DNA from: Candidatus Portnoybacteria bacterium RIFCSPHIGHO2_02_FULL_39_12
GTDB taxonomy: Bacteria > Patescibacteriota > Minisyncoccia > Portnoybacterales > UBA2143
Assembly (NCBI GenBank): GCA_001819555.1
Contig: MHMZ01000012.1
Span: 1-55,607, forward strand
DNA: 55,607 bases
Reading direction: 5' to 3'
Shown here: positions 3,118 to 49,590 of the stretch, piece after piece
Layout of the letters: each line of letters begins with the position of its first letter
Position numbering within the stretch: position 1 is the first letter of the stretch
Notes under the pieces: generated by a model
What the model was told of the DNA's origin: nothing
Database searches by the model: none
The model's input: the letters and a program-made list of their open reading frames with translations, nothing else
Made by a program: the position numbers and the translations under genes

Positions 3118-3564
3118 TTATTTTCTTTTAGAATGATGGCTTAAAAATACTTTAATGTAATTCAAAAATGTATCAAAATCACCTAAATCTTTTTTGACTA
3201 TTTTATACATTTCCAAAGGAGTGACATCAAAATAAAAATGGGTTAATCTGTTGCGATAGCCGGCCATTTCCGTTAAATTATTCTCGGCAAATTTTTTAGA
3301 AATTATTTTATATTCTCCCAGTTTTTGAGCAATTTCTTTATAGGCGCTCACTTGAACATGAGGAATCCGAGAAAGAATATGACTGCCAATATCAAAAACC
3401 GCCTCTAAAGCCCTCCTCAAATTATGTTCGGCAATAGCAAAATTGTCTTCTAAGGCGAATTTGCCTTGACTCATCTTTCGCATCTTCTTGAGGCGTTCCA
3501 CGCTTTTCTGAATAATATCAATCCGGTCAATAATTAGTTTTTTATTAATATCTATTTTATTCAT
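3118..3564 (-). CDS. hepT: HepT-like HEPN-domain toxin (DUF86)
   Basis: 148 aa with the Rx4H HEPN motif in YRNRLTHFY. It overlaps the upstream nucleotidyltransferase gene by 4 bp. Confidence 0.8.
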   Translation of the reverse strand: MNKIDINKKLIIDRIDIIQKSVERLKKMRKMSQGKFALEDNFAIAEHNLRRALEAVFDIGSHILSRIPHVQVSAYKEIAQKLGEYKIISKKFAENNLTEMAGYRNRLTHFYFDVTPLEMYKIVKKDLGDFDTFLNYIKVFLSHHSKRK

Positions 3565-3968
3565 ACTCTTGATAAAATTGCCTGATTAAATCTTTCCAAA
3601 TGCGGCTGAAAATCAAGATACTGCTTTAAGGTATATTCTTCATAGGCATAGCGCTTAGCCCGTGTTTTTTGATATAAGACCTCTCCGGTCTGAATGGCTG
3701 AAATCTGAACGCTTAAAGGGACAGACTGCAAAAAAACCACATCTATCTCTTTGTCTATGGGGAAAATGCGGCTAAATAATTTATACAAATCCTTAAAAAC
3801 ATTTGTTTTGTCTTTTATTTTCTCTGGCTGGGTAAAAACTAGACCAATGTCAATATCGCTCATTGGCTGAGTTCTTTTTTGCGCTTCTGAACCAAATAAA
3901 TAGACGATTTCAAGACCTATTTTTTGAAACTCTCTGATTTCTTTTTTAGAAAACATTATTTTGCCCAT
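3561..3968 (-). CDS. mntA: MNT-type nucleotidyltransferase antitoxin
   Basis: 135 aa with the GS...DxD signature (LFGSEAQKRTQPMSDIDIG) of minimal nucleotidyltransferases. Translationally coupled to hepT. Confidence 0.8.
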   Translation of the reverse strand: MGKIMFSKKEIREFQKIGLEIVYLFGSEAQKRTQPMSDIDIGLVFTQPEKIKDKTNVFKDLYKLFSRIFPIDKEIDVVFLQSVPLSVQISAIQTGEVLYQKTRAKRYAYEEYTLKQYLDFQPHLERFNQAILSRV

Positions 3969-4362: not shown

Positions 4363-4851
4363 TCAATTCACCTCCTGAATTTGGGAGGCGTTTATTAAAT
4401 AAACGCCTCCCTGATTGCTGTAATTTGGCAGCGGGGTTGACTGCCAGACGCCGGGACTGGCTTCGGGTCGAGATTGAGGTTGAGGCAGAACCCGGGACTG
4501 AGATACAGGCTGTCCTCCCAAGGCCCCAACGATGATTTGATCAATCACAGAGTCGGGAAGAGTTTTTACTCTTTCTCCAACTCTTTCCCCTAAAGAAGAA
4601 TAGAGCTGTTTTTTAAATCCCAACTCTACTTCCTCTTGGGGAGATGGCCCCATCAATTTGCGGCCTGCCCAAGTTACCAACGGAATCCCTATCAAAACCC
4701 CTGCAACAAGTATTAACGTCTTGGCAACTCCCGCTTCTGCGTCTTCGGGGTAGCGGGCAGCTGGTTCTCCATTCCAACTATAGGCCACTACTGGGGTAAA
4801 AACAAAACAGAAAATCAGAAAAAAAATCGAAATCTTTTTCACTTCTCTCAC
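4363..4851 (-). CDS. Hypothetical secreted/membrane protein
   Basis: 162 aa with an N-terminal signal-like hydrophobic segment and a second TM segment (LILVAGVLIGIPLV). No recognisable catalytic motif. Confidence 0.55.
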   Translation of the reverse strand: MREVKKISIFFLIFCFVFTPVVAYSWNGEPAARYPEDAEAGVAKTLILVAGVLIGIPLVTWAGRKLMGPSPQEEVELGFKKQLYSSLGERVGERVKTLPDSVIDQIIVGALGGQPVSQSRVLPQPQSRPEASPGVWQSTPLPNYSNQGGVYLINASQIQEVN

Positions 4852-5511: not shown

Positions 5512-5675
5512 AAGCCATATTCCATTGTCAAAGTACGCCCGCATTATACCACCTATCCCCCATATTTGTCAAGAGCTGACTTCTAAAGCTCCTTTAATGA
5601 CTCCCGCATATCAAGTCCTGTCAAGACACATCAGAGCGCTCGCGAAAAATCTGTGGATAACTATAAGTTTATTAT

Positions 5676-5712: not shown

Positions 5713-6120
5713 ATGCCATCGTTATTCTCTCTTAAAAAATTATTGATAATGGCAATTTTGATATTGGCCTTGATTTTTATATTATTCTTCTGGCCAAAAA
5801 CGCTTTTTCAAATCACAAACACCTCTTCTTTAACCATGGCCGGCAATCTCTTCGGCGGAAAAACAAAAGAAGTAATACCTTGCCTTCACCCTTTCACCGG
5901 TTTTTACATCAAGCTAAGCGGGCCAACTGCCGGTGATTTTATTTATAACAGCGGCACCTCAAAAAGTTATTTATACGGACCGCCCAACCCCAACCGTTTA
6001 GGACAATGGCTTTTGGGTTATGCGGCCGGAGATGTTAAATGTTTTACAGCCGAAAAACACGGCAAATGGCGAAATCCGAAATCCGGCACCCTTATTTTAT
6101 TTCACGGCTCAAGCATGTAA
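5713..6120 (+). CDS. Hypothetical membrane-anchored protein
   Basis: 135 aa with a single N-terminal TM segment. First gene of a long co-directional block. Confidence 0.55.
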   Translation: MPSLFSLKKLLIMAILILALIFILFFWPKTLFQITNTSSLTMAGNLFGGKTKEVIPCLHPFTGFYIKLSGPTAGDFIYNSGTSKSYLYGPPNPNRLGQWLLGYAAGDVKCFTAEKHGKWRNPKSGTLILFHGSSM

Positions 6121-16233: not shown

Positions 16234-17021
16234 AAAAATTCTCAATTTTTGTTATTATTATATTCGCCTTACTATCTGCTTATTCTGTTTCTGCCGCCTA
16301 TCAGTTAGAAACTACTTATCCCGAAATAGAGGGCGTTAAGGCCACAAGCGAATTAACTTCTTTTATCAGATATATCTATATCTACGGCTTAGCAACTATC
16401 GGCCTTGTTGCCTTGGGCGCTTTGGTAATCGGGGGTATAATGTATATGGGCGCTGGAAGCATTACCAGCGCCGAAGAAGCGAAAAAAATAATCTGGGGAG
16501 CAATTGGGGGTCTGCTTTTGGGTTTAGGCGCTTATTTAATTCTAAATACCATTAATCCGGATTTGCTTAAGTTAAAAAAACCAGAGGTGAAGTCCTTTTC
16601 TTTAAGAAAAGAAGAAGAAGCGGCTTATAGAACAGCCAGCGAACAATCGGCCCGTTCGCAATTAAGCCAAGCCGGTATTAATACAAAAAGAGAATGCCAG
16701 CCCAACGAATCTACAGGATGCGTTACTTTTGACGGTATAAGAGAAAATACTCTCAATGAAGTAATTGGCCTTAAAAGAGATTGTGGATGCGATATATATG
16801 TTTCGGGCGCAAGAGAATCCGGCCATCGCGCCGGCTCAAGAAGTCATCAAACTGGCCATAAAATTGACATTCATCTGAATGACCCCTTAAATAATTACAT
16901 TTCAGAAAATTTTAAACGGGTTGGCACTCGGCCAAGCGATCAGGCGCCACTATATGAAAATCCCCAAACCGGCAATCTTTATGCCAAAGAAAGCGATCAT
17001 TGGGATATTTTTGTTCGTTAA
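16230..17021 (+). CDS. T4SS pilin-like (TrbC/VirB2-like) N-terminal module fused to a putative LAS/M15-type zinc peptidase domain
   Basis: 263 aa with a signal peptide and two hydrophobic helices ending in LILNTINPDL. The C-terminal domain carries SHQTGHKIDIH and ESDHWDI, which resemble the HxxGxAxD and ExxH(W) motifs of M15 cell-wall peptidases. Confidence 0.5.
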   Translation: MKKFSIFVIIIFALLSAYSVSAAYQLETTYPEIEGVKATSELTSFIRYIYIYGLATIGLVALGALVIGGIMYMGAGSITSAEEAKKIIWGAIGGLLLGLGAYLILNTINPDLLKLKKPEVKSFSLRKEEEAAYRTASEQSARSQLSQAGINTKRECQPNESTGCVTFDGIRENTLNEVIGLKRDCGCDIYVSGARESGHRAGSRSHQTGHKIDIHLNDPLNNYISENFKRVGTRPSDQAPLYENPQTGNLYAKESDHWDIFVR

Positions 17022-25811: not shown

Positions 25812-26933
25812 ATGCAAATAATTTGTCTTCAAGAAAATTTAAAACAAGCTCTTAATATCACAGAAAGAATTATCGGACGTAATTTAACTCTACCTATTTT
25901 AAATAACCTCCTTTTAACCACCGAAAATAATCGTTTAAAAATCTCTTCAACTAATTTAGAAATAGGTATTATCTCTTGGATTAACGGCAAAATTGAAAAA
26001 CCCGGAGAAATCACAATACCGGCTAAATTATTAAGTAATTTTATTGGTAATTTGCCAAATAAAAAAATTGAGATGAGGGTCAAAGGTAGTCAATTACATT
26101 TAAAATGTGAAAATTTTAAAGCCGTTTTAAACGGCTTAGAAGCAAAAGAATTCCCTATTATTCCCAAAATTAAAGACAAGCCCTTAATTAGAATTAAGGG
26201 CGGTGTTTTAAAGGCGAATTTATCTCAAGTGGTAGAGATGACTTCTCTTTCTGATTCCAGGCCTGAAATCTCCGGCGTTTTAATGAATTTTGAAAAAAAC
26301 ACAATCAAACTGGCGGCGACTGACAGTTTTCGTTTGGCTGAAAAAATAATATCCCACAACCAAAAAGAATCTATTAATCAAGCTATGATTATTCCTCAAA
26401 AGACTATTCAAGAACTAATCAGAATTTTAGGCGAAAAAGAGGCGGCCAACGATAACCAAGGGCAGGAAGTAGAAATAATTTTAGGCAATAATCAGGTTTT
26501 ATTTAATTTAGGGGATGTCCAGATTATTTCCCGGCTAATAGAGGGGCAATACCCTGATTATCAACAGATTATCCCCAAGAACTTTACAACTCACGCCACT
26601 CTTATTCGGACTGAATTAATTAATAATATCAGAGTGGCCAGTCTTTTTAGCGGCAAGGTTAATAATGTTCAGTTTTTTATTCGGTCAAAGCCGGCTTTAA
26701 TAGAAATTTTTGCCAAAGACATAGATGTCGGGGAAAATAAGTCCCAGATTGAAGCTAAAATTGAAGGCAAAGAAATAGAGATTGTCTTTAATTGCCGCTA
26801 TATTTTAGACGGCTTAAATAATATAATGAGCGATAAAGTTATTTTAGGTCTGAATAATAATTCCAGTCCGGTTATTATCAAGCCGGTCGGCGACGCAAGT
26901 TATACCTATCTGGTTATGCCTATTAAAGCGTAA
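25812..26933 (+). CDS. dnaN: DNA polymerase III beta sliding clamp
   Basis: 373 aa. Its position after dnaA, three-domain length, and the ATDSFRLA and C-terminal YLVMPIK motifs support the call. Confidence 0.93.
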   Translation: MQIICLQENLKQALNITERIIGRNLTLPILNNLLLTTENNRLKISSTNLEIGIISWINGKIEKPGEITIPAKLLSNFIGNLPNKKIEMRVKGSQLHLKCENFKAVLNGLEAKEFPIIPKIKDKPLIRIKGGVLKANLSQVVEMTSLSDSRPEISGVLMNFEKNTIKLAATDSFRLAEKIISHNQKESINQAMIIPQKTIQELIRILGEKEAANDNQGQEVEIILGNNQVLFNLGDVQIISRLIEGQYPDYQQIIPKNFTTHATLIRTELINNIRVASLFSGKVNNVQFFIRSKPALIEIFAKDIDVGENKSQIEAKIEGKEIEIVFNCRYILDGLNNIMSDKVILGLNNNSSPVIIKPVGDASYTYLVMPIKA

Positions 26934-26990: not shown

Positions 26991-29619
26991 ATTCTTTTAT
27001 AATAGTTATTTCGTCTTCTTCTCTGTTTAAGGCCTCATCATAAGCGCGGACTTTGATGGTTTGTTGGGCGGAAGCAGTTAGATAAGGAGTGAGATTAAAA
27101 GTAATTGAGTAGGGCTGAATAGTGTCAGCGCCGACTAATCGGTCGTTAATAAAGAAATCAAGTTGCTTAACGCCCAAAGACGCCGAGGCCTCGGCCTGAA
27201 TAGTTAGGACGGATTGGGTAATCGCTTCGTTGTTTTTTGGGGAAATAATTTTTACTTTTAGCTGTTCTTTTTTAATATGAACATCATCGTATTCGGTCGG
27301 CAATAATTGATTATAAACCGGGCAAGGAGAATTTGAGCAGGGCGGATTTTTGGCCCAAGCCAAGATCGGGGTCTCCCAATTAAGGAATTGGGGGTCGTTT
27401 TCTTGATTTTCGGGAATCGGTCCGGTCGGATTATTTTTATCAACATAATAAAGAATTGAATGGACTTCCTGATAAATTTTTTCTTCAATTAAGTCCGGCG
27501 GGGTTAAATCTGTTGCTAATTTGCCGGAAATTTTATCAATTTTTATTTTTCTCTCAAAAGCAAATTGGCCGTTAAGGATTGGTTTGCCTGTTGTTATCGG
27601 CTCTGGCGAAGTAAATTCTTCTATTTTATTAGGCAGCGTGAACAAAGCGAGGGGCTGTCCTTCAGACTCCTGAGGGGCAGCCCCTCGTAGTTCATAAGCC
27701 CGTTTCATAAACTCATTCCAAATTGGGGCCGCCACATAACTGCCATCGCCTTGCCGCATTGAAGAGCTATCATTATTGCCGGCCCAGACCCCGGCGACTA
27801 AAGACGGCGTGTACCCGACTGTCCAGCCGTCGCGGTATTCTTGAGTGGTGCCGGTTTTAACCGCGGCTGGCCGGCCAGCTAAATAAAGATTTGAATGGGA
27901 ACCAAACATCGGGGCCCGAGCTTCTTCGTCGGAAAGAATATCATTGATTTGCCTGGCAGTTTGCTGGTCTAAAACCCGGCTAGACTTATTTTGATATTCT
28001 TCTAAAATATTTCCTTTAGCATCTTTTATTTTTAAAATAGAGGCAACCGGATGTTTTATGCCTTCAGCGGCAAAGACCCCATAAGCCGCTGTTTCGTCTA
28101 AAAGTTTCACTTCGCCGCCCCCTAAAACCAAAGACAAGCTATAACGTTTTCGGTCTTTTAAGGTGGTGATACCCATATCTTGGGCCAAATTAATAGTTTC
28201 ATTTAAGCCGGCCAAATAAAGAACCTTGACCGAAACCAGGTTGATTGATTGGGCCAGGGCTTGGCGCATAGTTATTGGCCCCCGAAATCTCCCATCGTAA
28301 TTTTGCGGCTTATATTCTTTTTCTTGGCCCGGCGGACCAAACAAACCAAAACTGGTTTCTAAATCAAATAAAACAGTTTCAGGGGTAAATCCCTTTTTAA
28401 GAGCCGCGGCGTAAGCAAACGGCTTGAAAGAAGAGCCGGGCTGACGATTGGGGCTTATAGTCACATTGAAATTGCCTTGGTTTTTAATATCAAAATAGTC
28501 GCGTGAGCCGACCATAGCCAAAATCTGGCCGGTTTTTGGGTCAACGGAGACCAAAGCGGCGTTAGTGGCCAGATAGTTCTTTTTATTATAATCAGCCCTT
28601 TGGGCAATCGCTTCTTCAGCGACTTTTTGTAAATTCCAATCAAGAGTAGTATAGACTTTTAAGCCGCCCTTTTCCACGTAATCCCGGCCGTATTTTTCTT
28701 CCAAATATTCTTGGATATACATAACAAAATGAGGCGCTTTAAAGCCGTATCTTTGAGGAGCGTATTTCAATTTTTCTTTTTTTGTTTCTTCAATTTTCTC
28801 TTCGGTCAAATAGCCGAATTTCGCCATTCGGTCTAATATGTATTCTTGGCGGGCCTTAAGTTCGTCAGTATGAGAACCGTAAGGCGAATAATAAGTCGGC
28901 GCCTTGGGCAGACCGGCTAAAAGAGCGGCTTCGGCCAAAGTCAGCTCTTTGGCCGGTTTATCAAAAAAAGTTCGGGCCGCGGCCTCAATGCCATAGGCGT
29001 TAGAGCCGTAAGGCACCTGATTGAGATAAAAGCCCAAAATTTCATCTTTGTCATATTTTATTTCTAATTCCAAAGCAAGAATGGCTTCTCTGATTTTTCT
29101 GATAAAGGTTTTTTCCGGCGTTAAAAAAGCGTTTTTAATGAATTGCTGGGTGATGGTTGAGCCACCCTGGGTTATTTTTTGGCCTCGCAAGTTAGCGACA
29201 GCGGCCCGGATTATTCCTTTTAAGTCCAGGCCAAAATGATGGTAAAAATTGTCATCTTCGGCAATAATGGTTGTTTCTTTGACATATTGAGGGATTTCTT
29301 CAATCGGAATAATGGTTCTTTTTTCCTCTCCGTGAATATCATAAAGCACCACTTCGCCGGTCCGGTCATAGATTTTAGTTGACTCTACTACCTCTCGCTG
29401 GCTGATTTTTTCCGGGTCAGGCAGGTCTTTGGCAAAATAGGCAAAAACGCCCAAGCCTAAAAAAAGCAAAAGCAAAGGAGTCAAAATAATTATTCTTAAA
29501 AGTCCCTTAAATACTCTCTTTTTTCTCCGGGGCTTTTTAAATTTACCCCGCACCTTTCGCGCAAAAATACTTTGTCTGCGAAAGGTGCGGGGTTTTCGAT
29601 AATAAATTCTTCCAACCAC
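26989..29619 (-). CDS. Class A penicillin-binding protein (GT51 transglycosylase + transpeptidase) with a C-terminal Ig-like domain
   Basis: 876 aa. GT51 motifs are EDDNFYHHFG and GGSTITQQ. Transpeptidase motifs are SSFKP (SxxK) and KTGT. The cytoplasmic tail contains palindrome H at 29546-29592. Confidence 0.9.
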   Translation of the reverse strand: MVGRIYYRKPRTFRRQSIFARKVRGKFKKPRRKKRVFKGLLRIIILTPLLLLFLGLGVFAYFAKDLPDPEKISQREVVESTKIYDRTGEVVLYDIHGEEKRTIIPIEEIPQYVKETTIIAEDDNFYHHFGLDLKGIIRAAVANLRGQKITQGGSTITQQFIKNAFLTPEKTFIRKIREAILALELEIKYDKDEILGFYLNQVPYGSNAYGIEAAARTFFDKPAKELTLAEAALLAGLPKAPTYYSPYGSHTDELKARQEYILDRMAKFGYLTEEKIEETKKEKLKYAPQRYGFKAPHFVMYIQEYLEEKYGRDYVEKGGLKVYTTLDWNLQKVAEEAIAQRADYNKKNYLATNAALVSVDPKTGQILAMVGSRDYFDIKNQGNFNVTISPNRQPGSSFKPFAYAAALKKGFTPETVLFDLETSFGLFGPPGQEKEYKPQNYDGRFRGPITMRQALAQSINLVSVKVLYLAGLNETINLAQDMGITTLKDRKRYSLSLVLGGGEVKLLDETAAYGVFAAEGIKHPVASILKIKDAKGNILEEYQNKSSRVLDQQTARQINDILSDEEARAPMFGSHSNLYLAGRPAAVKTGTTQEYRDGWTVGYTPSLVAGVWAGNNDSSSMRQGDGSYVAAPIWNEFMKRAYELRGAAPQESEGQPLALFTLPNKIEEFTSPEPITTGKPILNGQFAFERKIKIDKISGKLATDLTPPDLIEEKIYQEVHSILYYVDKNNPTGPIPENQENDPQFLNWETPILAWAKNPPCSNSPCPVYNQLLPTEYDDVHIKKEQLKVKIISPKNNEAITQSVLTIQAEASASLGVKQLDFFINDRLVGADTIQPYSITFNLTPYLTASAQQTIKVRAYDEALNREEDEITIIKE
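29546..29592. repeat. Palindromic repeat, family H copy, at the 5' end of the PBP gene
   Basis: CCCCGCACCTTTCGC ... GCGAAAGGTGCGGGG with perfect 15-bp arms. Translated as KPRTFRRQSIFARKVRG if the ATG at 29619 is used. Confidence 0.85.
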
Positions 29620-29732
29620 CTTTTTATTGTGGCAAATTTAACCCATTTTGGCAAGGAGCAGAAAATCAGTATAGGGTATTTAAAAAGGAGGTATCTTAAA
29701 CCCCCTTTTTAAAGTTATCCACAACCAACATA

Positions 29733-29761
29733 TTCAAAGTTCTGAAAATGTTCGGTATAAT
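29733..29761 (+). promoter_or_regulatory. Putative promoter (TTCAAA-17-TATAAT) with an overlapping imperfect palindrome, upstream of the LexA-methyltransferase ORF
   Basis: TATAAT at 29756-29761 lies 6 nt before the ATG at 29768, giving leaderless geometry. TTCAAAGTTCTGAA (29733-29746) is an imperfect palindrome over the -35. A perfect TTATCCACA lies at 29715-29723. Confidence 0.4.
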
Positions 29762-29767
29762 ATAATT

Positions 29768-31642
29768 ATGGCAAATCTAAAAACAACGTTAAATATGCTA
29801 ACCAAAAAACAAAAACAAATCTTAGATTATATTAAGAAGTTCATCAAAGAAAATGATTACGCCCCTTCTCTTGAAGAATCAAGAAGGCATTTTAGATTAG
29901 CTTCTAAATCTACCATCCATCAGCACATAAAAACACTGAAAAATAAAGGATATCTGAATAAACTGGATTATCAGGCGCGGGCAATAGAAATCTCTAAAAA
30001 TAAAAAATCAGACTTAATAAAAATTCCCCTGCTCGGGGCTATCGCCGCTGGGGCGCCGATTGAAGCAATTGAATTTCCAGAAACAATTAGTGTCCCGAAA
30101 TCTCAATTATCTAAATCAGGGGAACATTTTGCTTTACGCGTTCAGGGCGATAGCATGATTGATGAGGGAATTTTTGATAGAGATGTCGTGGTTATCAGAA
30201 AACAGCCGGACGCGGAAAACGGCGAGACAGTTGTTGCTTTAATAAATAATGACGAGGTTACTCTAAAAAAAATCTACAAAGAAAAAAGTCGGTTTTGGCT
30301 CCAGCCGGCCAATCCCAATTTAAAACCTATCTATGCCAAAGAATTAGTCATTCAAGGAAAAGTTATTAGCGTAATTAGAAATTACGAAAAACCAAAAGAA
30401 ACAAGAACAAAAAACAATGATAGTGAATTCGCCGCCGCGACCACAAACTACATCAACCAAACAGATATCAATTACAGAAAATCCCTAGGGCAATATTTTA
30501 CGCCTAAGTCCATCAGAGAAATGCTGCTTGAAAAACTGCCCAAAATGGAAAATCCTAAAATTTTAGACCCGTCTTGCGGCACTGGCGAATTCTTGGTCAC
30601 GGCGAAAGAGTACTTTAAAAATCCTGAATTATATGGCTGGGACATAGATAAAAAATTAGTTGATACTTCCAGAAGTCTAGTTCCTGAAGCAAGACTTGAT
30701 AAGACAGACTCTCTCCTGAATGAAGATTATGATAAATATGATTTTGTTATTGGCAATCCTCCCTATTATGAATTTAAAGCGCCGGAAAAAATTAGAAGAA
30801 AATTTGGCAGTATAATGAATGGCCGAACAAATATATTTAGCTTATTTGTCTATCAGGGACTCAATTGGCTAAAAGACGGCGGCTATCTTGCTTATGTTAT
30901 TCCCCCTTCTATGAATAACGGCGCCTATTTCTATAAATTAAGAAATTACATTATCCACAACGCAAACATTGAATATCTACATATCCTTAGAGACCCGAAA
31001 ATTTTTCACGGCGCCTTGCAGTCAATAATGCTGCTTGTTCTTAAGAAAGGCAAAAATAAAGGCGATTATTTATTCAAAAAAAATGGTGTTTTGATATTTA
31101 GCGAAGGCGCTAAATATTTACAGAGGATATTTAAAGACAAAGCAACGCTACATGATTTAAACTATCAAGTAAAAACAGGTCGGCTGGTTTGGAACGAGAA
31201 TAAAAATCTGCTCACAGATAATCCCAAAGAAGGCATTCCTTTGATATGGGCACACAATATAACGAAAGAGGGTTTGGATTTCCCAGCGGTTAATGGCAAG
31301 CCGCAATATGTAAAAAGGAAAGATTTTGATGTCGGCCCGGCGATTGTGGTAAATAGAATCACCGGCACAGTTAAAGAATCAAAATTAAAAGCGGGCTTTA
31401 TCCCGCCGGGTATGAAATTTATCGCGGAAAATCATGTTAATGTAATTTTCCCGCCATCTAAACAGGAGCAGATAAAAATGGATTTTGGGAGCAATCAACC
31501 TAAAAAAAATCTGCCTATTAAAAACATTGTTAAGCAGATATCTTCAATAAGAGGATTAAAAGTTATAAAAAACATCACTGGAAACACACAAATCTCAAAA
31601 AATGAATTGGAGAAGTTATTCCCAATTTCTCTTAATTGTTAG
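29768..31642 (+). CDS. Fusion protein: LexA repressor (wHTH + S24 autopeptidase) joined to a gamma-class N6-adenine DNA methyltransferase (TaqI/Eco57I-like)
   Basis: Single uninterrupted 624-aa ORF. Residues 1-~205 form a complete LexA: the wHTH (SKSTIHQHIKTLKNKGYL), the Ala-Gly cleavage motif (LGAIAAGAPIE), the Ser nucleophile (QGDSM) and the Lys (VTLKK). Residues ~235-624 carry the methyltransferase motifs X (LGQYFTP), I (ILDPSCGTGEFL) and IV (VIGNPPY), plus a C-terminal TRD-like region (VKTGRLVWNE). Confidence 0.85.
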   Translation: MANLKTTLNMLTKKQKQILDYIKKFIKENDYAPSLEESRRHFRLASKSTIHQHIKTLKNKGYLNKLDYQARAIEISKNKKSDLIKIPLLGAIAAGAPIEAIEFPETISVPKSQLSKSGEHFALRVQGDSMIDEGIFDRDVVVIRKQPDAENGETVVALINNDEVTLKKIYKEKSRFWLQPANPNLKPIYAKELVIQGKVISVIRNYEKPKETRTKNNDSEFAAATTNYINQTDINYRKSLGQYFTPKSIREMLLEKLPKMENPKILDPSCGTGEFLVTAKEYFKNPELYGWDIDKKLVDTSRSLVPEARLDKTDSLLNEDYDKYDFVIGNPPYYEFKAPEKIRRKFGSIMNGRTNIFSLFVYQGLNWLKDGGYLAYVIPPSMNNGAYFYKLRNYIIHNANIEYLHILRDPKIFHGALQSIMLLVLKKGKNKGDYLFKKNGVLIFSEGAKYLQRIFKDKATLHDLNYQVKTGRLVWNENKNLLTDNPKEGIPLIWAHNITKEGLDFPAVNGKPQYVKRKDFDVGPAIVVNRITGTVKESKLKAGFIPPGMKFIAENHVNVIFPPSKQEQIKMDFGSNQPKKNLPIKNIVKQISSIRGLKVIKNITGNTQISKNELEKLFPISLNC

Positions 31643-32585
31643 GGGTCAAGTCAAAAATATTCAGGCAGGGCGTTTTAATCCCTTGAGCTATATTTTTCCA
31701 GTGTAAAACTATCTGCAACAATGGTTCGGATTTACTACCCCTTATTCCCGCTATTTTACAATGAGTTAATCCTTTAGGAAAAACAATCTTAAAGTCAGAA
31801 TATTTGCTAATTATTTTATTTACCCGTTCGCCAGTATCCTCTCTTCTGACAATAACCTTGCCTTTGTGGTAATTGGCATAATAGATAAAAAGATTTTGAA
31901 CTTCTTTAAAGAAGTTTTTTTCTTTTATTAAATCGACTAACGGCTCTTTTGTGTGAATGCCCAAGGTGATAAGGATAAAAAATCCTTTAATCATCTCGGC
32001 ATCTTGTTTTTGAACGCTTAAATAATTAAGATATTCTAATTTTTCCTCTCGGTCCCTTTTCTGAATATTTTTAAGAATATCCTTAGATTTTTTATTTCTT
32101 TTTAAATTCCGTAGATATCTTGCCTTTTCTTCTCTTTGCGTTATTAAATTGCTAATTTTTAAAATTTTTTGAGGGGAACGGCTGAATTTATCTAAATAAT
32201 CATCAACCCATTTATCATGATTTTTTTCTTTGCGAAAACCGCTCCAACTTTTTACCTCGCCGACAAAAAGATAGTTTTCTGTAAGAGCGTCCTGGTTAAT
32301 ATTTGCCCTGGTTCCGATCCCTGATTTTGTATCACTCATTTTAATCTCAATAAAAATTTTCTCGCCATTAGAGATAATCAGCATATCGCCTGTATTATCA
32401 TAACGATTACCCAAGTGTTTAGCTGACGAAATATTCGTAAAATCTTTTTTAATTTGCTTGGCTACCTGAAGAGCATGAAAAAACCAACGATTTTTCTTAT
32501 CGTTGGATGTCAGAGGGTTAGAGTTTAAAATTTTCTCAATAATTTTCTCCGCCTCTTCAATCAATTGTCTTTCGTGTTTTCCCAT
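31632..32585 (-). CDS. Putative type II restriction endonuclease (PD-(D/E)XK fold)
   Basis: 317 aa, very AT-rich, and convergent with the methyltransferase with an 11-bp overlap. The candidate catalytic core is GDMLIISNGEKIFIEIK (D...ExK). It has no other recognisable domain. Confidence 0.5.
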   Translation of the reverse strand: MGKHERQLIEEAEKIIEKILNSNPLTSNDKKNRWFFHALQVAKQIKKDFTNISSAKHLGNRYDNTGDMLIISNGEKIFIEIKMSDTKSGIGTRANINQDALTENYLFVGEVKSWSGFRKEKNHDKWVDDYLDKFSRSPQKILKISNLITQREEKARYLRNLKRNKKSKDILKNIQKRDREEKLEYLNYLSVQKQDAEMIKGFFILITLGIHTKEPLVDLIKEKNFFKEVQNLFIYYANYHKGKVIVRREDTGERVNKIISKYSDFKIVFPKGLTHCKIAGIRGSKSEPLLQIVLHWKNIAQGIKTPCLNIFDLTPNN

Positions 32586-32657
32586 AATCTCTAAAATTAA
32601 GTTTAATCCTTAAATTATCGCTGGTCAATTCTGGAATAACCATCATTCCGTTATTTA

Positions 32658-32686
32658 TTGACAATAATTAAAAAGAGAGATTATAA
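32658..32686 (+). promoter_or_regulatory. Putative tyrS promoter (TTGACA-17-TTATAA)
   Basis: TTGACA at 32658-32663, a 17-nt spacer, and TTATAA at 32681-32686. Confidence 0.5.
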
Positions 32687-32703
32687 AAAAGAAAAGACCC
32701 GTT

Positions 32704-32854
32704 ACGAGTGATGTGAAATTCAATTAGTTTATTCCCTGAGCGGAGCGAGCGAAGCGAGCGAAGTCGAAGGGTCTTTAGCCTTCAATGCGGCGCCTTCGAC
32801 GCCTTACTCAAGTAATAATAGTCATTTTAAGCTAAGGAATTTCACATCACGCGT
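32704..32854. mobile_element. MITE-like element with 18-bp terminal inverted repeats and a 10-bp target-site duplication
   Basis: The TIRs are ACGAGTGATGTGAAATTC (32704-32721) and GAATTTCACATCACGCGT (32837-32854), with 1 mismatch. They are flanked by the direct repeat AAGACCCGTT at 32694-32703 and 32855-32864. The interior carries family-D-like CCTGAGCGGAGCGAGCGAAGCGAGCGAAGTCGAAGG. Confidence 0.7.
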
Positions 32855-32921
32855 AAGACCCGTTGGAATAGGGCAATAGCGGGCTCTTTTCTTTTTGGTT
32901 TTATTTAGGTATAGTAAGGAT

Positions 32922-34115
32922 ATGGCAGAAGATAAAATTAAAACTTTATTAAGCAAGGGAGTGGAAGAAGTTATTAAAAGAGATAGTTTGGAAAAGAAAT
33001 TGAGAGCGGGGAAGAAATTAAGGATAAAATACGGGGCAGACCCGAGCGCGCCGGATTTGCACTTGGGACACAGCGTTTGCTTGTGGAAATTAAAAGAATT
33101 TCAGGACTTGGGGCACCAAGTTATTTTTATTATTGGCGACTTTACCGGCCTTATCGGCGACCCTTCAGGCAGGGACAAGACTCGGCCGGCCTTATCCAAA
33201 GAAGAGATAGAAAAAAACGCCAAAACCTATTTTGAGCAAGCGGGGAAAATTTTAGACATTAAAAAAATAGAAATTAAGAAGAACAGCCAGTGGTTTTCTA
33301 AAATGGATTTAGCGGATTTTTTAAAATTAGCCGGCCAATTTACTTTGGCGAGAATTATAGAAAGAGATGATTTTAGCCAGCGCTTAAAAAAGGGAATAGA
33401 CATTGGCTTTCATGAAACTATTTATCCCCTACTGCAGGCCTACGATTCAATTATGGTTAAGGCCGATGTTGAGGTCGGCGGCCGCGACCAGAAATTTAAT
33501 CTTTTGGCCGGCCGGGAGCTTCAGAAAAAAATGGGCCAGCCAGAGCAGGATTTAATGCTTTTTCCTCTTTTGGTCGGCGCTGACGGGAAAAAGAAAATGT
33601 CAAAAAGCTTAGGCAATTATATCGGCCTGACCGAATCAGCCAATGAACAATACGGCAAAATAATGTCTATTTCTGATGATTTGATTTTTCATTATTTTGA
33701 ACTCTGCGCTCGATTATCCCAAGAAGAGATTAAAGAGATTAAGAAGGAAACGGATTCAGGTCGGCTTAATCCCCGCGACGCTAAAGCGCGTTTGGCCAGA
33801 GAGATTGTTTCGCTTTATCATGGAAAAACTGCGGCAGAAAAAGCTGAAAAAGAATTTATTCAGGTTTTTCGAGAAAAGAAAAAGCCAACCCAAATGCCAG
33901 TTCAAAAAATTAAAGCCGGCAAATGGAATGTTTTAGACTTGCTTTTTAAATTAAAATTAGCCCCAAGCAAAAGCGAGGCTAAGAGATTAATAGAGCAAGG
34001 CGGGGTGAAAATAGACGGCCGGGTTGTTAAAGACTGGAAAGTTGAAATTCAAATCAAAGACGGCTTGGTTGCGCAGGTTGGAAAAAGGAAGTTTGTTAGA
34101 TTGAAGAGATCCTAA
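32922..34115 (+). CDS. tyrS: Tyrosyl-tRNA synthetase
   Basis: HIGH motif as DLHLGH, a KMSKS motif, and a C-terminal S4-like domain. The ATG at 32922 is preferred over the upstream TTG at 32895. Confidence 0.92.
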   Translation: MAEDKIKTLLSKGVEEVIKRDSLEKKLRAGKKLRIKYGADPSAPDLHLGHSVCLWKLKEFQDLGHQVIFIIGDFTGLIGDPSGRDKTRPALSKEEIEKNAKTYFEQAGKILDIKKIEIKKNSQWFSKMDLADFLKLAGQFTLARIIERDDFSQRLKKGIDIGFHETIYPLLQAYDSIMVKADVEVGGRDQKFNLLAGRELQKKMGQPEQDLMLFPLLVGADGKKKMSKSLGNYIGLTESANEQYGKIMSISDDLIFHYFELCARLSQEEIKEIKKETDSGRLNPRDAKARLAREIVSLYHGKTAAEKAEKEFIQVFREKKKPTQMPVQKIKAGKWNVLDLLFKLKLAPSKSEAKRLIEQGGVKIDGRVVKDWKVEIQIKDGLVAQVGKRKFVRLKRS

Positions 34116-34121
34116 TCAAGG

Positions 34122-35024
34122 TCAGACCTTGGCTTGCGGCTTGGATTCAATATACTTAATCACTTTTTTAGCCACATTAAGGCCGGTTATCTGACTGAAT
34201 CTTTTAAATTGAGGCGAGCGGTTGATTTCTAAAACCCGCAATTGACCGTTTTTATCCGGCATAATATCAACGCCGGCGAATTCTATTCCAGCGGTTCTTG
34301 CGGCCGTTAATGCCAATTCTTTTAATTTTTTAGTTAATTTAATTTTTTTTGAGCGCTCGGCCAAAGGAATCTTTGGTCTATTTTTACACAAAAGAGACAG
34401 CCGCTCCATTGCGCCTAACGCTTCTTCTCCTAAAATTAAAACCCGATAATATTTTTTAGCCGGATACCATTCTTGAATTAAATAGCGGCCCGCCTTGCCG
34501 CGAGGCAGGCCCAGCCACTCTTTTTTATTTCGGCTAAAAAAATCCAAAACTTCTTTTTGGGCGTCAAACCGGAAAACATAGCGGCCTCGCATTTCTTTTA
34601 AGTGTTTAACTACCAAAGGCGGCTCTATTTTTTCTAAAGTTTTTTTAAGAGCATTTAAGCCCAAGGGAAGATAAGTAATCGGTTGGGGTATGTTTTCTTC
34701 TTTTAATTTAGTATGCATTAAAAATTTATGATGGTCATAATTACTTCCGGCTAAAATATCGTCAATAACTATTTTGTTTCTATTTTTCATGTATTCGGCG
34801 ATAATTTTTGCCTCAACAATATGCCGGTTGATGGCCCGAAAAAGAATTGCGTCAAATTCAGAAATATCCCGACCTTCTTTGGTGAAAACGAAAAGATTTT
34901 GCCGAAAACTCAAAATTAATTGATTTAAGGGTATTATTTTTAAATAATGGCTTCTTTTTTCCGCTTCTTTTTTAAGCTGTTGCGATTCAGGAGATTTTTT
35001 AGAGCCGATAAGAAGAATTTTCAT
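34122..35024 (-). CDS. RimK-family ATP-grasp ligase
   Basis: 300 aa. Its C-terminal VLEINRSPQFKRFSQITGLNVAKKVIKYI is typical of RimK-type alpha-L-glutamate ligases. Overlaps the upstream gene by 4 bp. Confidence 0.75.
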   Translation of the reverse strand: MKILLIGSKKSPESQQLKKEAEKRSHYLKIIPLNQLILSFRQNLFVFTKEGRDISEFDAILFRAINRHIVEAKIIAEYMKNRNKIVIDDILAGSNYDHHKFLMHTKLKEENIPQPITYLPLGLNALKKTLEKIEPPLVVKHLKEMRGRYVFRFDAQKEVLDFFSRNKKEWLGLPRGKAGRYLIQEWYPAKKYYRVLILGEEALGAMERLSLLCKNRPKIPLAERSKKIKLTKKLKELALTAARTAGIEFAGVDIMPDKNGQLRVLEINRSPQFKRFSQITGLNVAKKVIKYIESKPQAKV

Positions 35025-36370
35025 GATTTTTTCAGTTTAGCCAGAGCCCGCGAGCTCATTAAAACATTTTTGCTCGGGTCAACCAAAAATTGTTTTAAAT
35101 CCTTGCGGCCGACAATAATGTCGTATTTCATCTGGCTGCGGTCAGCGACAAAGGCCTCGGTTGAGACTAATTTTTTGTCTAAAATAAAAGAAAATTCAAT
35201 AATCGGCCGTTCTTCCAATCCCAACGCCCCTCTGACTTTTTTATACTTCATCGTCTCATTCAGTCCCAATTGATGGGTCAAGCTGGCGCAAATCGCCGTC
35301 CGATAAGCGCCGGTGTCAATTTTAGCCATGGTTTGATATTTATTGCCCTGTTGGTCAATAATTTCAATCGGTTCATTGATGCCGATAACTTTTTTACCCG
35401 AGACCTCTTCTAGTATCTCTTCCACTTCGCCGCCGAAAAGGTCTTGGCTGATTTTTACTCCTTTAAGCGGGCTTTTAACTTTAAGCCCCTTGATTCTTTT
35501 AAGCCGGTCAGCCAAAGGAGATAAATTGGCGATTTGGATGGAGAGGCCGGGACGAGCATTAAGCTCTGAAATAATCGGCCCTTTTTCCCGGTCAATGGCA
35601 ATATCAACGCCTAAAAAATTAAGCCGGGAAACTATTTGGGCCTGAATAGCCAACTTGAGAATTTCTTTCCATTCCGGGATTTGAAGGCCTTTTAGCAATA
35701 ATCTGGTGTCCGGCGCGTATTCAATAAGACGGCCGCGATGGATAGCCGTCGTGGTGATGCCGGTGCCTAAATCAATGCCCACGCCAATGCCTCCTTGGTG
35801 CAGATTAGCTTGACCGGAAGATTCCCTGGTGGGCAGACGCAATTGAGCCATAACCGGCACTGAATTATAGACAATGATTCTAATATCAGGAATGCCGCGA
35901 TAAACATAGGATTTTAAAAGTTTAAGCAGTTTAATTCGTTCCTCAAAAAAGGCGATGTCGGGCAAGCTGGTTAAAGAAAAAGTGCCTTCCAGTATGTTTA
36001 AAATATGATTTTCTAAATCTTTAATATCAACCAGACGGCCGTCGGCTTTTATCCAGGGATAAGGGAATTTTTTCTTGCGGCCGTAAACAACCACAATGCC
36101 TTGGCCGCCCAAGCCGCGGTTGGGCTTTAGAGTAAAAGTGGGAGGCAGAACCGTCCAGTCAAATCCTTTTAATTCTTTAATTTGCCGGATAAGGCCGTAG
36201 TTTTGAAGAATTGGCAGGCTGGCTTTTCTTAAGATTTTTTTAGTCAAGAGCTTATTATCGGCAATACGAATAGCCCTCAAGGAGTTTGAGGGCCGGAGAT
36301 AATTTAGGTTTCGGGCGTTTATTCCTAAAATATGTTGAGATTTTTTTAAGAAGGAAAGCATAGCTGTCAT
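35021..36370 (-). CDS. ATP-grasp (alpha-L-glutamate-ligase-related) enzyme fused to a C-terminal retropepsin-like domain (DUF785-type)
   Basis: 449 aa. The N-terminal GINARNLNYLRPSN...ADNKLLTKKIL matches the RimK-related ligase family. The C-terminal ~130 aa carry AKIDTGAYRTAI (DTGA aspartyl-protease motif) and IVGRKDLKQFLVDP. Confidence 0.7.
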   Translation of the reverse strand: MTAMLSFLKKSQHILGINARNLNYLRPSNSLRAIRIADNKLLTKKILRKASLPILQNYGLIRQIKELKGFDWTVLPPTFTLKPNRGLGGQGIVVVYGRKKKFPYPWIKADGRLVDIKDLENHILNILEGTFSLTSLPDIAFFEERIKLLKLLKSYVYRGIPDIRIIVYNSVPVMAQLRLPTRESSGQANLHQGGIGVGIDLGTGITTTAIHRGRLIEYAPDTRLLLKGLQIPEWKEILKLAIQAQIVSRLNFLGVDIAIDREKGPIISELNARPGLSIQIANLSPLADRLKRIKGLKVKSPLKGVKISQDLFGGEVEEILEEVSGKKVIGINEPIEIIDQQGNKYQTMAKIDTGAYRTAICASLTHQLGLNETMKYKKVRGALGLEERPIIEFSFILDKKLVSTEAFVADRSQMKYDIIVGRKDLKQFLVDPSKNVLMSSRALAKLKKS

Positions 36371-36376
36371 TTGGAT

Positions 36377-37039
36377 TTATTTCTGTTGCGGCAGTTCTAT
36401 CTTTTTAATCACTTCTCTAAAACGCCAGTATTCAGAAAGCCGCAGACCGGTCCATTTTCCCAAAAGAATATTAATAATGACCGCGCCAAAGATAATCCAA
36501 AAAGGATAAATAAAAACCAAATTCCTTAGCCAAATAGAGGTCACTACCCAATAACAGACCACTGAAAGAAATAATGTTTCAATAGTTAAAATAATCGCTT
36601 CTCTGGCCCCCCTTTCGGTCTGAACAGCCACAAATTTTTCCACCAAGGTAATCATAATTAGGATGGCAAAAATAGAAGCGGAAATCAGTCCCTTTCGGCC
36701 GGAATAAGCGCCTTCTAAAAAAATGGCCAAAATAGCTAAGGCCACGGCCGTTAAAACAATAGCCATGCGGGGGAGATAGAGCAATCGGATATATCTGACT
36801 AAAAATCTCATTAAAGTGCCGACCAAAAGAATGACAATAAAAATAGCCAAGCCGTATTTAAGTCCGGTGGCTAAAAAAGCAAAAGTAATAATCAAAGGCG
36901 CGTAGACGCCAAATCCCCTTACTCCGATTATCTGCCGGCCAAAAGCGATAATTGTCGCGACAATCGGCAGCATTAAAATTAAAATCACCGTTTCTTGCGG
37001 CACTCCCTGATTGACCATGTATTGAGTGATAAATGACAT
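36377..37039 (-). CDS. 7-TM membrane protein of the type associated with RimK-related ligase operons
   Basis: 220 aa with about 7 hydrophobic helices. First gene of the three-gene cassette. Confidence 0.55.
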   Translation of the reverse strand: MSFITQYMVNQGVPQETVILILMLPIVATIIAFGRQIIGVRGFGVYAPLIITFAFLATGLKYGLAIFIVILLVGTLMRFLVRYIRLLYLPRMAIVLTAVALAILAIFLEGAYSGRKGLISASIFAILIMITLVEKFVAVQTERGAREAIILTIETLFLSVVCYWVVTSIWLRNLVFIYPFWIIFGAVIINILLGKWTGLRLSEYWRFREVIKKIELPQQK

Positions 37040-49198: not shown

Positions 49199-49590
49199 TG
49201 GTGGAGATGGCGAGAGTTGAACTCGCGTGTAGAAAACCCTTCTAAAATAATTCTACAAGCTTAGCTTGATTTATGATGAGAATTAAAAATTTAAAATCAA
49301 GCAAAATATTCTTAATTCTTGTCTTGTATTTTTTCAATAATTTATTCAAGACGGCTAAATTATCTATCTCGATAATTTGACACCCAAACTAACTTATCGA
49401 GAGTCAGTTAGCCGGATGGCCTACGGATTTAAACGTAGGCAGGAATTAAGCTTGGAACGTTAAAGATTGAAGCAATAGCGCTCTTAGCTTTGGAAAATAA
49501 GTTTGCACTTATATTTTGCCAAAAGTTTAGCGAGATTTTGAGCTCGGCTTGCTTATTTTAAAAACGCTTCTATCGAAACCCGGCATCCCC
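49199..49590 (-). ncRNA. ssrA: tmRNA (SsrA)
   Basis: On the minus strand the 5' end is GGGGATGCCGGGTTTCGATAGAAGCG and the 3' end is GCGAGTTCAACTCTCGCCATCTCCACCA (T-arm plus acceptor with CCA). It is adjacent to smpB. The predicted tag ORF at 49506-49429 starts at AAGU-GCA-AAC and ends at a UAA in a hairpin loop. Confidence 0.88.

Follow-up and report, generated by a model that had tools for sequence, protein, structure and literature searches.

A predicted restriction-modification cassette of Candidatus Portnoybacteria whose adenine methyltransferase carries an N-terminal LexA head

Introduction

In a restriction-modification (R-M) system, methylation has to stay in advance of cleavage on cell entry and whenever repair or recombination creates unmethylated DNA, and to our knowledge little has been established about how type II systems detect DNA damage. 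In type I systems, restriction alleviation after DNA damage proceeds via proteolysis of HsdR, and other damage-responsive defence acts via separate regulator proteins. Among type II systems, an N-terminal helix-turn-helix (HTH) domain has been described on autoregulatory methylases of the M.SsoII type (PMC6100179). Here we analyzed a 55,607-nt stretch of Candidatus Portnoybacteria bacterium RIFCSPHIGHO2_02_FULL_39_12 (contig MHMZ01000012.1, positions 1 to 55,607; hereafter the window), in which a complete lexA gene is fused in frame to an N6-adenine DNA methyltransferase gene and faces a convergent gene for a predicted restriction endonuclease.

Functionally, this module resembles R-M systems of the M.SsoII type or under C-protein control, yet it is a member of neither. 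As in these systems, a DNA-binding domain is tied to the R-M genes, an operator lies in the promoter, and the arrangement would time the methylase relative to the nuclease. Unlike the HTH_3-type domain of M.SsoII-type methylases, however, the head found here is a LexA winged HTH (wHTH) followed by an S24 protease, which adds a cleavage switch; and whereas the M and R genes of M.SsoII-type systems diverge from one shared regulatory region, the genes here are convergent and overlapping, and the R promoter has no operator. With type I alleviation and the damage-responsive defence regulators the module would share the feedback of DNA damage on restriction or defence, but unlike in type I alleviation, the damage sensor would be a covalent part of the methylase.

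The SOS network of Patescibacteria is reportedly the subject of a 2017 study by Sanchez-Osuna, Barbe and Erill. In the literature searched, no description of a LexA-methyltransferase fusion was found, an earlier mention in that study (Environ Microbiol 19:3465) being possible, and none was found in a 2026 preprint on methyltransferases in 12,552 Candidate Phyla Radiation (CPR) genomes. The original prediction, which a model had made from the DNA letters alone, knew of no R-M system with a methylase covalently linked to an autocleavable SOS repressor, and the literature searched likewise yielded none. Judged from sequence, R-M systems putatively controlled by a self-cleaving SOS repressor that is covalently joined to the methylase appear to be new, and they are widespread.

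Results

One uninterrupted gene joins LexA to an adenine methyltransferase

The open reading frame (ORF) at 29768–31642 on the forward strand translates without interruption into 624 aa, just as first read. The same ORF was found in the 11 orthologous loci fetched (L001–L007 and L081–L084) and in at least 120 protein clusters of the fusion, which are 610–625 aa long, 65–100% identical over the full length, and derived from independent Patescibacteria assemblies (JGI, ENA, NCBI and Logan). A frameshift or stop codon splitting lexA from the methylase, named at the outset as one outcome that would argue against the idea, is not present in any of these assemblies; the LexA-methylase fusion is real and no artefact of assembly or frameshifting. 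Current annotation calls the fusion proteins either "LexA" or "adenine methyltransferase", never both. The parts of the gene, with residues numbered on the 624-aa ORF, are as follows.

29795–31642, forward: lexA::N6-adenine methyltransferase gene of 615 aa when counted from the conserved start, with the ORF reaching upstream to a non-conserved ATG at 29768
29795–29983, forward: LexA wHTH DNA-binding domain, residues 10–72 (Pfam LexA_DNA_bind PF01726, E 9e-17)
30026–30367, forward: S24 autoprotease/dimerisation domain, residues 87–200 (Pfam Peptidase_S24 PF00717, E 2e-29)
30047–30052, forward: predicted Ala94-Gly95 cleavage site of the S24 domain
30152–30154, forward: Ser129 of the S24 dyad
30266–30268, forward: Lys167 of the S24 dyad
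30368–30472, forward: linker of ~35 aa between S24 and methyltransferase, the junction behind which methyltransferase tails were exchanged
30473–31123, forward: gamma-class N6-adenine DNA methyltransferase catalytic domain, residues 236–452 (motifs LGQYFTP, DPSCGTGEFL and VIGNPPY)
31124–31639, forward: C-terminal ~170 residues, presumed target-recognition domain, conserved within the family, with no Pfam or PDB match and a predicted local distance difference test (pLDDT) value <50

Pfam and NCBIfam confirmed the proposed domain order of LexA wHTH, Ala-Gly site, Ser/Lys dyad, linker and gamma-class methyltransferase, and the motifs on which it had been based (IAAGAPI, GDSM, TLKK, LGQYFTP, DPSCGTGEFL and VIGNPPY) were all seen in the 624-aa translation. 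The leaderless promoter geometry that had been proposed did not hold: the first ATG, at 29768, is ATA in the 92%-identical orthologues L082–L084, while the second, at 29795, is the start kept by the gene callers and by all orthologues. The fusion gene is therefore not leaderless, and a leaderless start at ATG 29768 was ruled out.

The LexA head keeps its cleavage residues

The head bears every sequence hallmark of a working LexA, namely the wHTH, the Ala-Gly site and the Ser/Lys dyad. Residues 10–206 match the lexA equivalog TIGR00498 (NCBIfam) at 200.6 bits against a curated cutoff of 110.95, and the family profile aligns end to end, from residue 2, with the LexA crystal structures of T. maritima (3k2z, 6e-46) and E. 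coli (1jhh, 3e-31). For the wider comparison, 78 LexA heads with 77 upstream regions were taken from the fetched loci, and the 783 kb of these loci served as background. Although the heads span 55–100% sequence identity, A94, G95, S129 and K167 are retained in 78/78, which supports a LexA half that is complete and under selection for self-cleavage.

The head thus resembles the LexA of E. coli (1jhh) and T. maritima (3k2z) in its full-length wHTH and S24 match, its Ala-Gly site, its dyad, and an operator in its own promoter. It differs from them in that it carries a ~400-aa C-terminal DNA methyltransferase, that it moves inside a mobile R-M cassette of which more than one copy per locus is possible, and that no operator at recA was found for these heads.

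The tail is a gamma-class methyltransferase with an orphan C-terminal domain

In the tail, Pfam recognised N6_Mtase (PF02384, residues 236–452, 3e-18) and Eco57I (PF07669, residues 314–413, 6e-17), and PADLOC classified it as a type II R-M methyltransferase (MTase_II, 1e-47). The S-adenosylmethionine-binding and catalytic motifs are present as a FxGxG-type DPSCGTGEF and as NPPY, and a profile of approximately residues 218–448 aligns with the catalytic domains of the gamma-class enzymes lmo1582, EcoR124 HsdM, CamA, M.BseCI and M.TaqI. With M.TaqI, CamA and M.BseCI the tail shares the motif order X-I-IV with NPPY, its catalytic domain aligning at E 1e-11 to 1e-14; unlike theirs, its C-terminal recognition domain has no detectable relative. 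The TaqI_C-like recognition domain first proposed for this region was not found, as no Pfam match to TaqI_C (PF12950) appeared at E up to 1 and a profile search gave no PDB sequence relative for residues ~449–615 of the 615-aa protein. TaqI_C is present in other LexA fusions (P0160 and P0166). The full-length AlphaFold2 model of the fusion (pLDDT 53) was too poor for a fold search or for judging the C-terminal domain.

Unfused homologues of this methylase, 57–60% identical to it, have a palindrome, TGAACtttcGTTCA, in the −35/−10 spacer.

L008 4492–4505; L010 1478–1491; L011 69–82; L012 5960–5973: TGAACtttcGTTCA (TGAAC-N4-GTTCA, with a GAAC-N4-GTTC core) in the promoters of unfused homologues

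TGAAC-N4-GTTCA occurs five times in the 783 kb, and four of these occurrences are the promoters of the unfused homologues. Since it holds the classical LexA-box core, this suggests that LexA-type control of the window's methylase family also exists in trans. Each of the four unfused homologues has a convergent partner of ~320 aa as well.

The convergent gene encodes a predicted HinP1I-like endonuclease

Behind the fusion gene, on the opposite strand, lies a second ORF (ORF2), for which an 11-bp overlap and an endonuclease-like D...ExK core had been noted; both were borne out.

31632–32585, reverse: ORF2, predicted type II restriction endonuclease of 317 aa with a HinP1I-like fold and D...ExK, in every case accompanying this type of methyltransferase
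32385–32387, 32346–32348 and 32340–32342, reverse: catalytic candidates D67, E80 and K82 of ORF2, invariant in the family
31632–31642: convergent 11-nt overlap of the fusion gene and ORF2, kept in orthologues
32600–32628, reverse: promoter-like site of ORF2, TTGACC-17-TAAACT, without LexA operator and without DnaA box

ORF2 belongs to a family of 227 homologues, none of them named, for which neither Pfam nor PADLOC has a model; D67, E80 and K82 are invariant across it. In the AlphaFold2 model of ORF2 (pLDDT 85.5; predicted template modelling score 0.80), D67 lies just before strand 68–72 and E80 and K82 lie within strand 75–84, the two strands being adjacent. HinP1I, a type II restriction endonuclease, was the only significant fold match in the PDB (E 2.9e-4, probability 1.00, template modelling (TM) score 0.35/0.42). 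The model accordingly places an invariant D...(D/E)xK on core beta strands, the signature of PD-(D/E)XK nucleases. Compared with the HinP1I/MspI-type endonucleases, which it resembles in this fold match and in D...ExK on adjacent strands, ORF2 is only 12% identical in sequence, reaches a TM-score of 0.35–0.42, and is longer by 70 aa, with an additional helical insert. A Pfam NERD match (22.5 bits against a cutoff of 22.1) covers residues 100–166, outside the catalytic core, and was not relied on.

A homologue of ORF2, 66–87% identical, lies convergent behind all 11 fusion orthologues, and one of 35% identity lies behind the unfused methylase relative L008. The partner of the unfused methylase in L010 (~322 aa) has no detectable kinship with ORF2 (hhalign probability <1%), and a tblastn search of L011 and L012 for relatives of ORF2 gave none. 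No terminator-like hairpin was found at the junction of the fusion gene and ORF2. Among 63 upstream regions of nuclease genes, none (0/63) had the operator or the DnaA-like box described below.

A direct repeat in the promoter spacer is the candidate LexA operator

The best promoter-like site within 29550–32950 is TTCAAA-17-TATAAT (10/12 matches), which lies upstream of the fusion gene and has the following elements.

29715–29723, forward: DnaA-box-consensus 9-mer TTATCCACA, 10 nt upstream of the −35
29733–29738, forward: −35 hexamer TTCAAA, from the promoter-site scan
29739–29756, forward: candidate LexA operator, direct repeat GTTCtgaaaatGTTCggt, filling the 17-nt −35/−10 spacer
29756–29761, forward: −10 hexamer TATAAT, overlapped by another TATAAT at 29761–29766

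The repeat of the window, GTTCtgaaaatGTTC, is an exact GTTC-N7-GTTC at 29739–29753, between the −35 and the −10. LexA boxes in the form of a GTTC-N7-GTTC direct repeat have been described before and constitute the alphaproteobacterial type (PMC8565304). The operator of the window matches this type exactly and the family consensus, nTTC-N7-nTTC, is similar; the differences are the other host lineage and half-site flanks that vary with the recognition helix. Family-wide, the direct repeat TTC-N8-TTC (nTTC-N7-nTTC, period 11) was found upstream of 67 of the 77 head genes, against ~5 in shuffled sequences and 3–15 at other spacings. The half-site variants track the recognition helix, as expected from direct readout: HQH goes with TTCGGT (13/13), HKH with TTCGC (6/6), and aromatic variants with TTCTA. 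A conserved direct repeat in the gene's own promoter spacer, co-varying with the recognition helix, is the pattern of an autoregulated LexA and points to autoregulation here.

The operator initially suggested, an imperfect palindrome over the −35 (TTCAAAGTTCTGAA), was replaced by this repeat, as its pairing is confined to 4-nt arms and it is not conserved. Two further matches in the window were also set aside. A position weight matrix match at 4810–4834 (reverse) outscored the operator of the window itself but falls in the T-rich, Phe/Ile-rich coding start of ORF 4363–4851 and is due to chance, and a second GTTC-N7-GTTC at 16630–16644 is intragenic, with 0.73 matches expected by chance.

The exact DnaA-like 9-mer (TTATCCACA/TGTGGATAA) occurs in 49 of the 77 upstream regions, those of stand-alone lexA genes included. 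Its density there is 5.2/kb vs 0.018/kb in the rest of the 783 kb, a ~280-fold difference, and it sits 5–20 nt upstream of the −35 in either orientation, at times with two copies flanking the promoter. This DnaA-box-like element may also tie the modules to replication. The window has a second copy at 5652–5660 (reverse), ahead of the TATAAT-N8-ATG promoter of an unannotated 135-aa ORF (5713–6120); a third TTATCCACA, at 30951 within the methyltransferase gene, is not kept in orthologues and was discarded. Upstream of dnaA itself there are only DnaA boxes with one mismatch (23856 and 24054).

Methylase and nuclease genes move as one cassette

Comparison with the orthologous locus L082 defined the boundaries of the module: nucleotide identity of 88.7% extends over exactly 29707–32628 (2,922 bp), outside of which there is no homology and the flanking genes are different.

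29707–32628: whole cassette, with promoter/operator, lexA::methyltransferase, and the convergent nuclease gene with its promoter, as delimited by nucleotide identity with L082

In the window the cassette lies between the genes for PBP1A and TyrS, ~3 kb from dnaA-dnaN (dnaA 24216–25574; dnaN 25812–26933, upstream of the cassette), so that the window spans an origin-proximal region. A search for flank synteny failed, as these neighbours (PBP1A, TyrS and the dnaA/dnaN side) are absent beside every related locus, and the cassette thus has no conserved chromosomal position. In close relatives, AbiJ_NTD4- or DUF3644-type genes adjoin the pair. Judged by the presence of ORF2 homologues with 11/11 orthologues, by the defined boundaries, and by a partner cluster that changes with the tail cluster, methylase and nuclease are inherited and exchanged as a pair. 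The proposed R-M module is supported, with a type II methylase call by PADLOC, a restriction-endonuclease fold predicted in the partner, and a pair that moves as one 2.9-kb cassette.

Many methylases stand behind one head

The survey of CPR genomes that had been recommended revealed the same architecture to be widespread, with at least four kinds of DNA methyltransferase. All but 4 of the 78 LexA heads have a DNA methyltransferase fused to their C-terminus, and these tails form six or more clusters that have no relationship to one another. Among the representatives of a 50%-identity clustered library, the long LexA-headed ones number 36, and every one of them contains a DNA methyltransferase domain (N4/N6 25, Eco57I/N6 6, D12 5 and C5 2). 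The downstream partner differs from one tail type to the next and is convergent in 62 of ~70 cases, in which it abuts or overlaps the stop codon; the partners that Pfam recognises are restriction enzymes or other nucleases (MvaI/BcnI at 1e-48, BsaWI, Bsp6I, MutH/Sau3AI-like and HNH). Stand-alone lexA genes are followed by other genes on the same strand.

L074 6001–7380; L080 6001–7386: stand-alone lexA, then 19–25 nt later a DpnI-family methyl-directed nuclease, same strand
L044 3220–4617: stand-alone lexA, then a NOV_C-domain protein, same strand

DpnI-family methyl-directed nucleases need no methylase. At these loci, lexA is linked to restriction with no methylase involved.

Tail exchange is visible directly in L014 and L081, which share 88.6% nucleotide identity between the promoter and roughly codon 200 but no relationship beyond it, and for 18 of the 78 heads the nearest head carries a different tail. 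Four loci have two LexA-headed genes within 13 kb (L003 1–5221, L034 4374–8985, L073 1651–7866 and L064 721–5719); in L003, two complete LexA-methylase/nuclease cassettes stand in tandem, and L064 combines one fusion with one stand-alone lexA. The host labels are mostly Patescibacteria, with a few Omnitrophota and one 2-Mb contig labelled Gammaproteobacteria. These sequence comparisons depict the LexA head with its promoter as a constant platform behind which methylase/nuclease pairs are repeatedly exchanged.

recA promoters share another palindrome

There is no second lexA and no recA within the window. An operator at recA, the mark of a LexA regulon, was not found in the small sample of seven recA loci, one of which is L037, where recA lies 3.7 kb from a fusion. 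The recA promoters have another palindrome in common, TGATA-N3/4-TATCA. In L165–L170, 230 nt upstream of recA (gene at 2501), it forms part of TTGCC-N~17-(G)TGATAcAATATCA(C), with the palindrome over the −10 box, and may be the site of another regulator. Repeats of TTTCG or TTTCTAT with a period of 7–9 were also seen in the recA promoters of L166, L167 and L170. The recA context is conserved in Patescibacteria as ftsK - rodZ-like - recA - ndk. In L037 (1261–7866), a leftward string of a 769-aa gene, a rodZ-like gene and, last, recA diverges from the promoter region of the LexA-methylase gene, which makes a shared divergent control region possible.

Other features of the window

Directly past TyrS, on the reverse strand (34122–37039), lie clustered genes for a RimK-like ATP-grasp protein, for an ATPgrasp_ST protein that also has a Zn-protease-like domain, and for a membrane protein of the 7TM_transglut type. 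The tmRNA gene at 49199–49590 (reverse) has a long predicted tag peptide, ANLFSKAKSAIASIFNVPSLIPAYV, without the usual LAA-type ending. A small ORF for a Pol-beta-type nucleotidyltransferase of 135 aa (3561–3968, reverse) overlaps the same-strand ORF 3118–3564 by 4 nt; from this layout, a toxin-antitoxin-like pairing of the two can be guessed at.

Discussion

The locus probably represents a transferable type II R-M cassette of ~2.9 kb, the methylase of which autoregulates through a damage-cleavable N-terminal LexA head. In the mechanism that we propose, the fusion protein would dimerise via its S24 domain and repress its own promoter, so that the methylase level would be self-limiting, a task that falls to C-proteins or M.SsoII-type HTH domains in other R-M systems. 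In a naive cell the promoter would be fully open and the methylase made first, and as no terminator lies between the genes, its transcript would read antisense through the nuclease gene and delay restriction. Upon DNA damage, RecA* filaments would stimulate Ala-Gly self-cleavage of the head, which would free the wHTH from the S24-methylase fragment and derepress the promoter; methylase output and antisense transcription across the nuclease gene would then rise. The balance would tip towards modification, and restriction would be alleviated at a time when repair generates unmethylated sites. We infer both the RecA* dependence of head cleavage and its physiological outcome, whether as a safety valve or in phage sensing.

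Several observations weigh against this reading. The operator is absent from the recA promoters of six Patescibacteria loci (L165–L170) and of the fusion-carrying L037, which leaves a link to the classical SOS regulon unsupported. In ~6 of ~70 fusions the partner is co-directional instead of convergent, so antisense interference is not a universal logic of the family. The co-variation of helix and operator might partly stem from co-inheritance of adjacent DNA, the first half-site of the window, GTTCTGA, is a degenerate version of the HQH-type consensus TTCGGT, and the TM-score of ORF2 against HinP1I (0.35/0.42) is modest.

RecA*-induced cleavage of the head could instead trigger suicide, as in abortive infection: the methylase would be destabilised or inactivated, for instance if its fragments fell prey to proteases like those of E. 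coli LexA, and a constitutive nuclease would cut new unmethylated DNA of host or phage and kill the infected cell. The nuclease promoter has no operator, and the nuclease is therefore presumably not under LexA control; the strict conservation of cleavage competence and the defence-type genes that adjoin cassettes, such as AbiJ_NTD4 and DUF3644, would also fit. Moreover, ClpXP and Lon degrade the fragments of E. coli LexA after cleavage. However, cleavage would leave the whole methyltransferase domain intact behind S24, no degron was identified, and as cleavage would also derepress the promoter, methylase synthesis should rise; we regard suicide as unlikely.

It is likewise improbable that the head is a housekeeping SOS repressor with attached R-M passengers, which might hitch-hike on an indispensable gene, the fusion then having no regulatory meaning for restriction. 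The equivalog-level match to LexA speaks for such a role, as do the absence of a second lexA from the window and the fusion of nearly all lexA relatives in these lineages. Yet the head and its promoter move with the cassette into different genomic contexts and several loci have two heads within 13 kb, and this mobility and multiplicity weigh against a housekeeping LexA. So do the recA promoters without operator, the stand-alone lexA genes that are still coupled to nucleases, and the LexA-box-like palindrome that the unfused methyltransferase homologues bear on their own.

That the head serves for DNA binding and dimerisation only, like the HTH of M.SsoII-type methylases, its RecA* response having been lost, is a reading that we consider decidedly improbable. 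Autoregulatory methylases with an N-terminal HTH are an established class (PMC6100179), and the lack of an operator at recA would agree with it; the retention of Ala-Gly, Ser and Lys in 78/78 heads across 55–100% identity would, however, hardly be expected unless cleavage were being selected for. It is scarcely credible that the ORF is a product of misassembly or a frameshift, or a prophage gene for a repressor-methylase, for although one IMG/VR contig (L085) has a LexA-N4/N6 methyltransferase fusion, the ORF recurs in >120 clusters from JGI, ENA, NCBI and Logan assemblies, the neighbourhoods hold no phage genes, and the other viral-contig relatives are distant (at most 44% identical) and mostly stand-alone, on which ground a prophage origin was rejected.

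The reading of an autoregulated, damage-cleavable methylase bears on how R-M systems could respond to DNA damage, as hundreds of independent sequences, spanning four methylase chemistries, have the canonical damage sensor covalently built into the methylase. Because sensor and methylase are one molecule, a single purified protein and a single promoter fragment would suffice to put the question of damage sensing to a direct test. The constant LexA head also offers a simple way to search for new R-M pairs, the ORF2 nuclease family with its 227 members among them. Patescibacteria mostly lack CRISPR, and R-M is a prominent candidate for their phage defence (PMC4742961; 2026 CPR methyltransferase preprint). 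For these bacteria, and for some genomes labelled Omnitrophota or Gammaproteobacteria, we tentatively advance a wider view, which we hold to be possible rather than probable: LexA may be mainly a modular, damage-cleavable head for the control of restriction instead of the master of a repair regulon, forming a constant promoter-operator-LexA unit before interchangeable methylase/nuclease pairs or DpnI-like nucleases, so that RecA* would directly reset the balance of modification and restriction, with the DnaA-box-like element possibly providing a link to replication.

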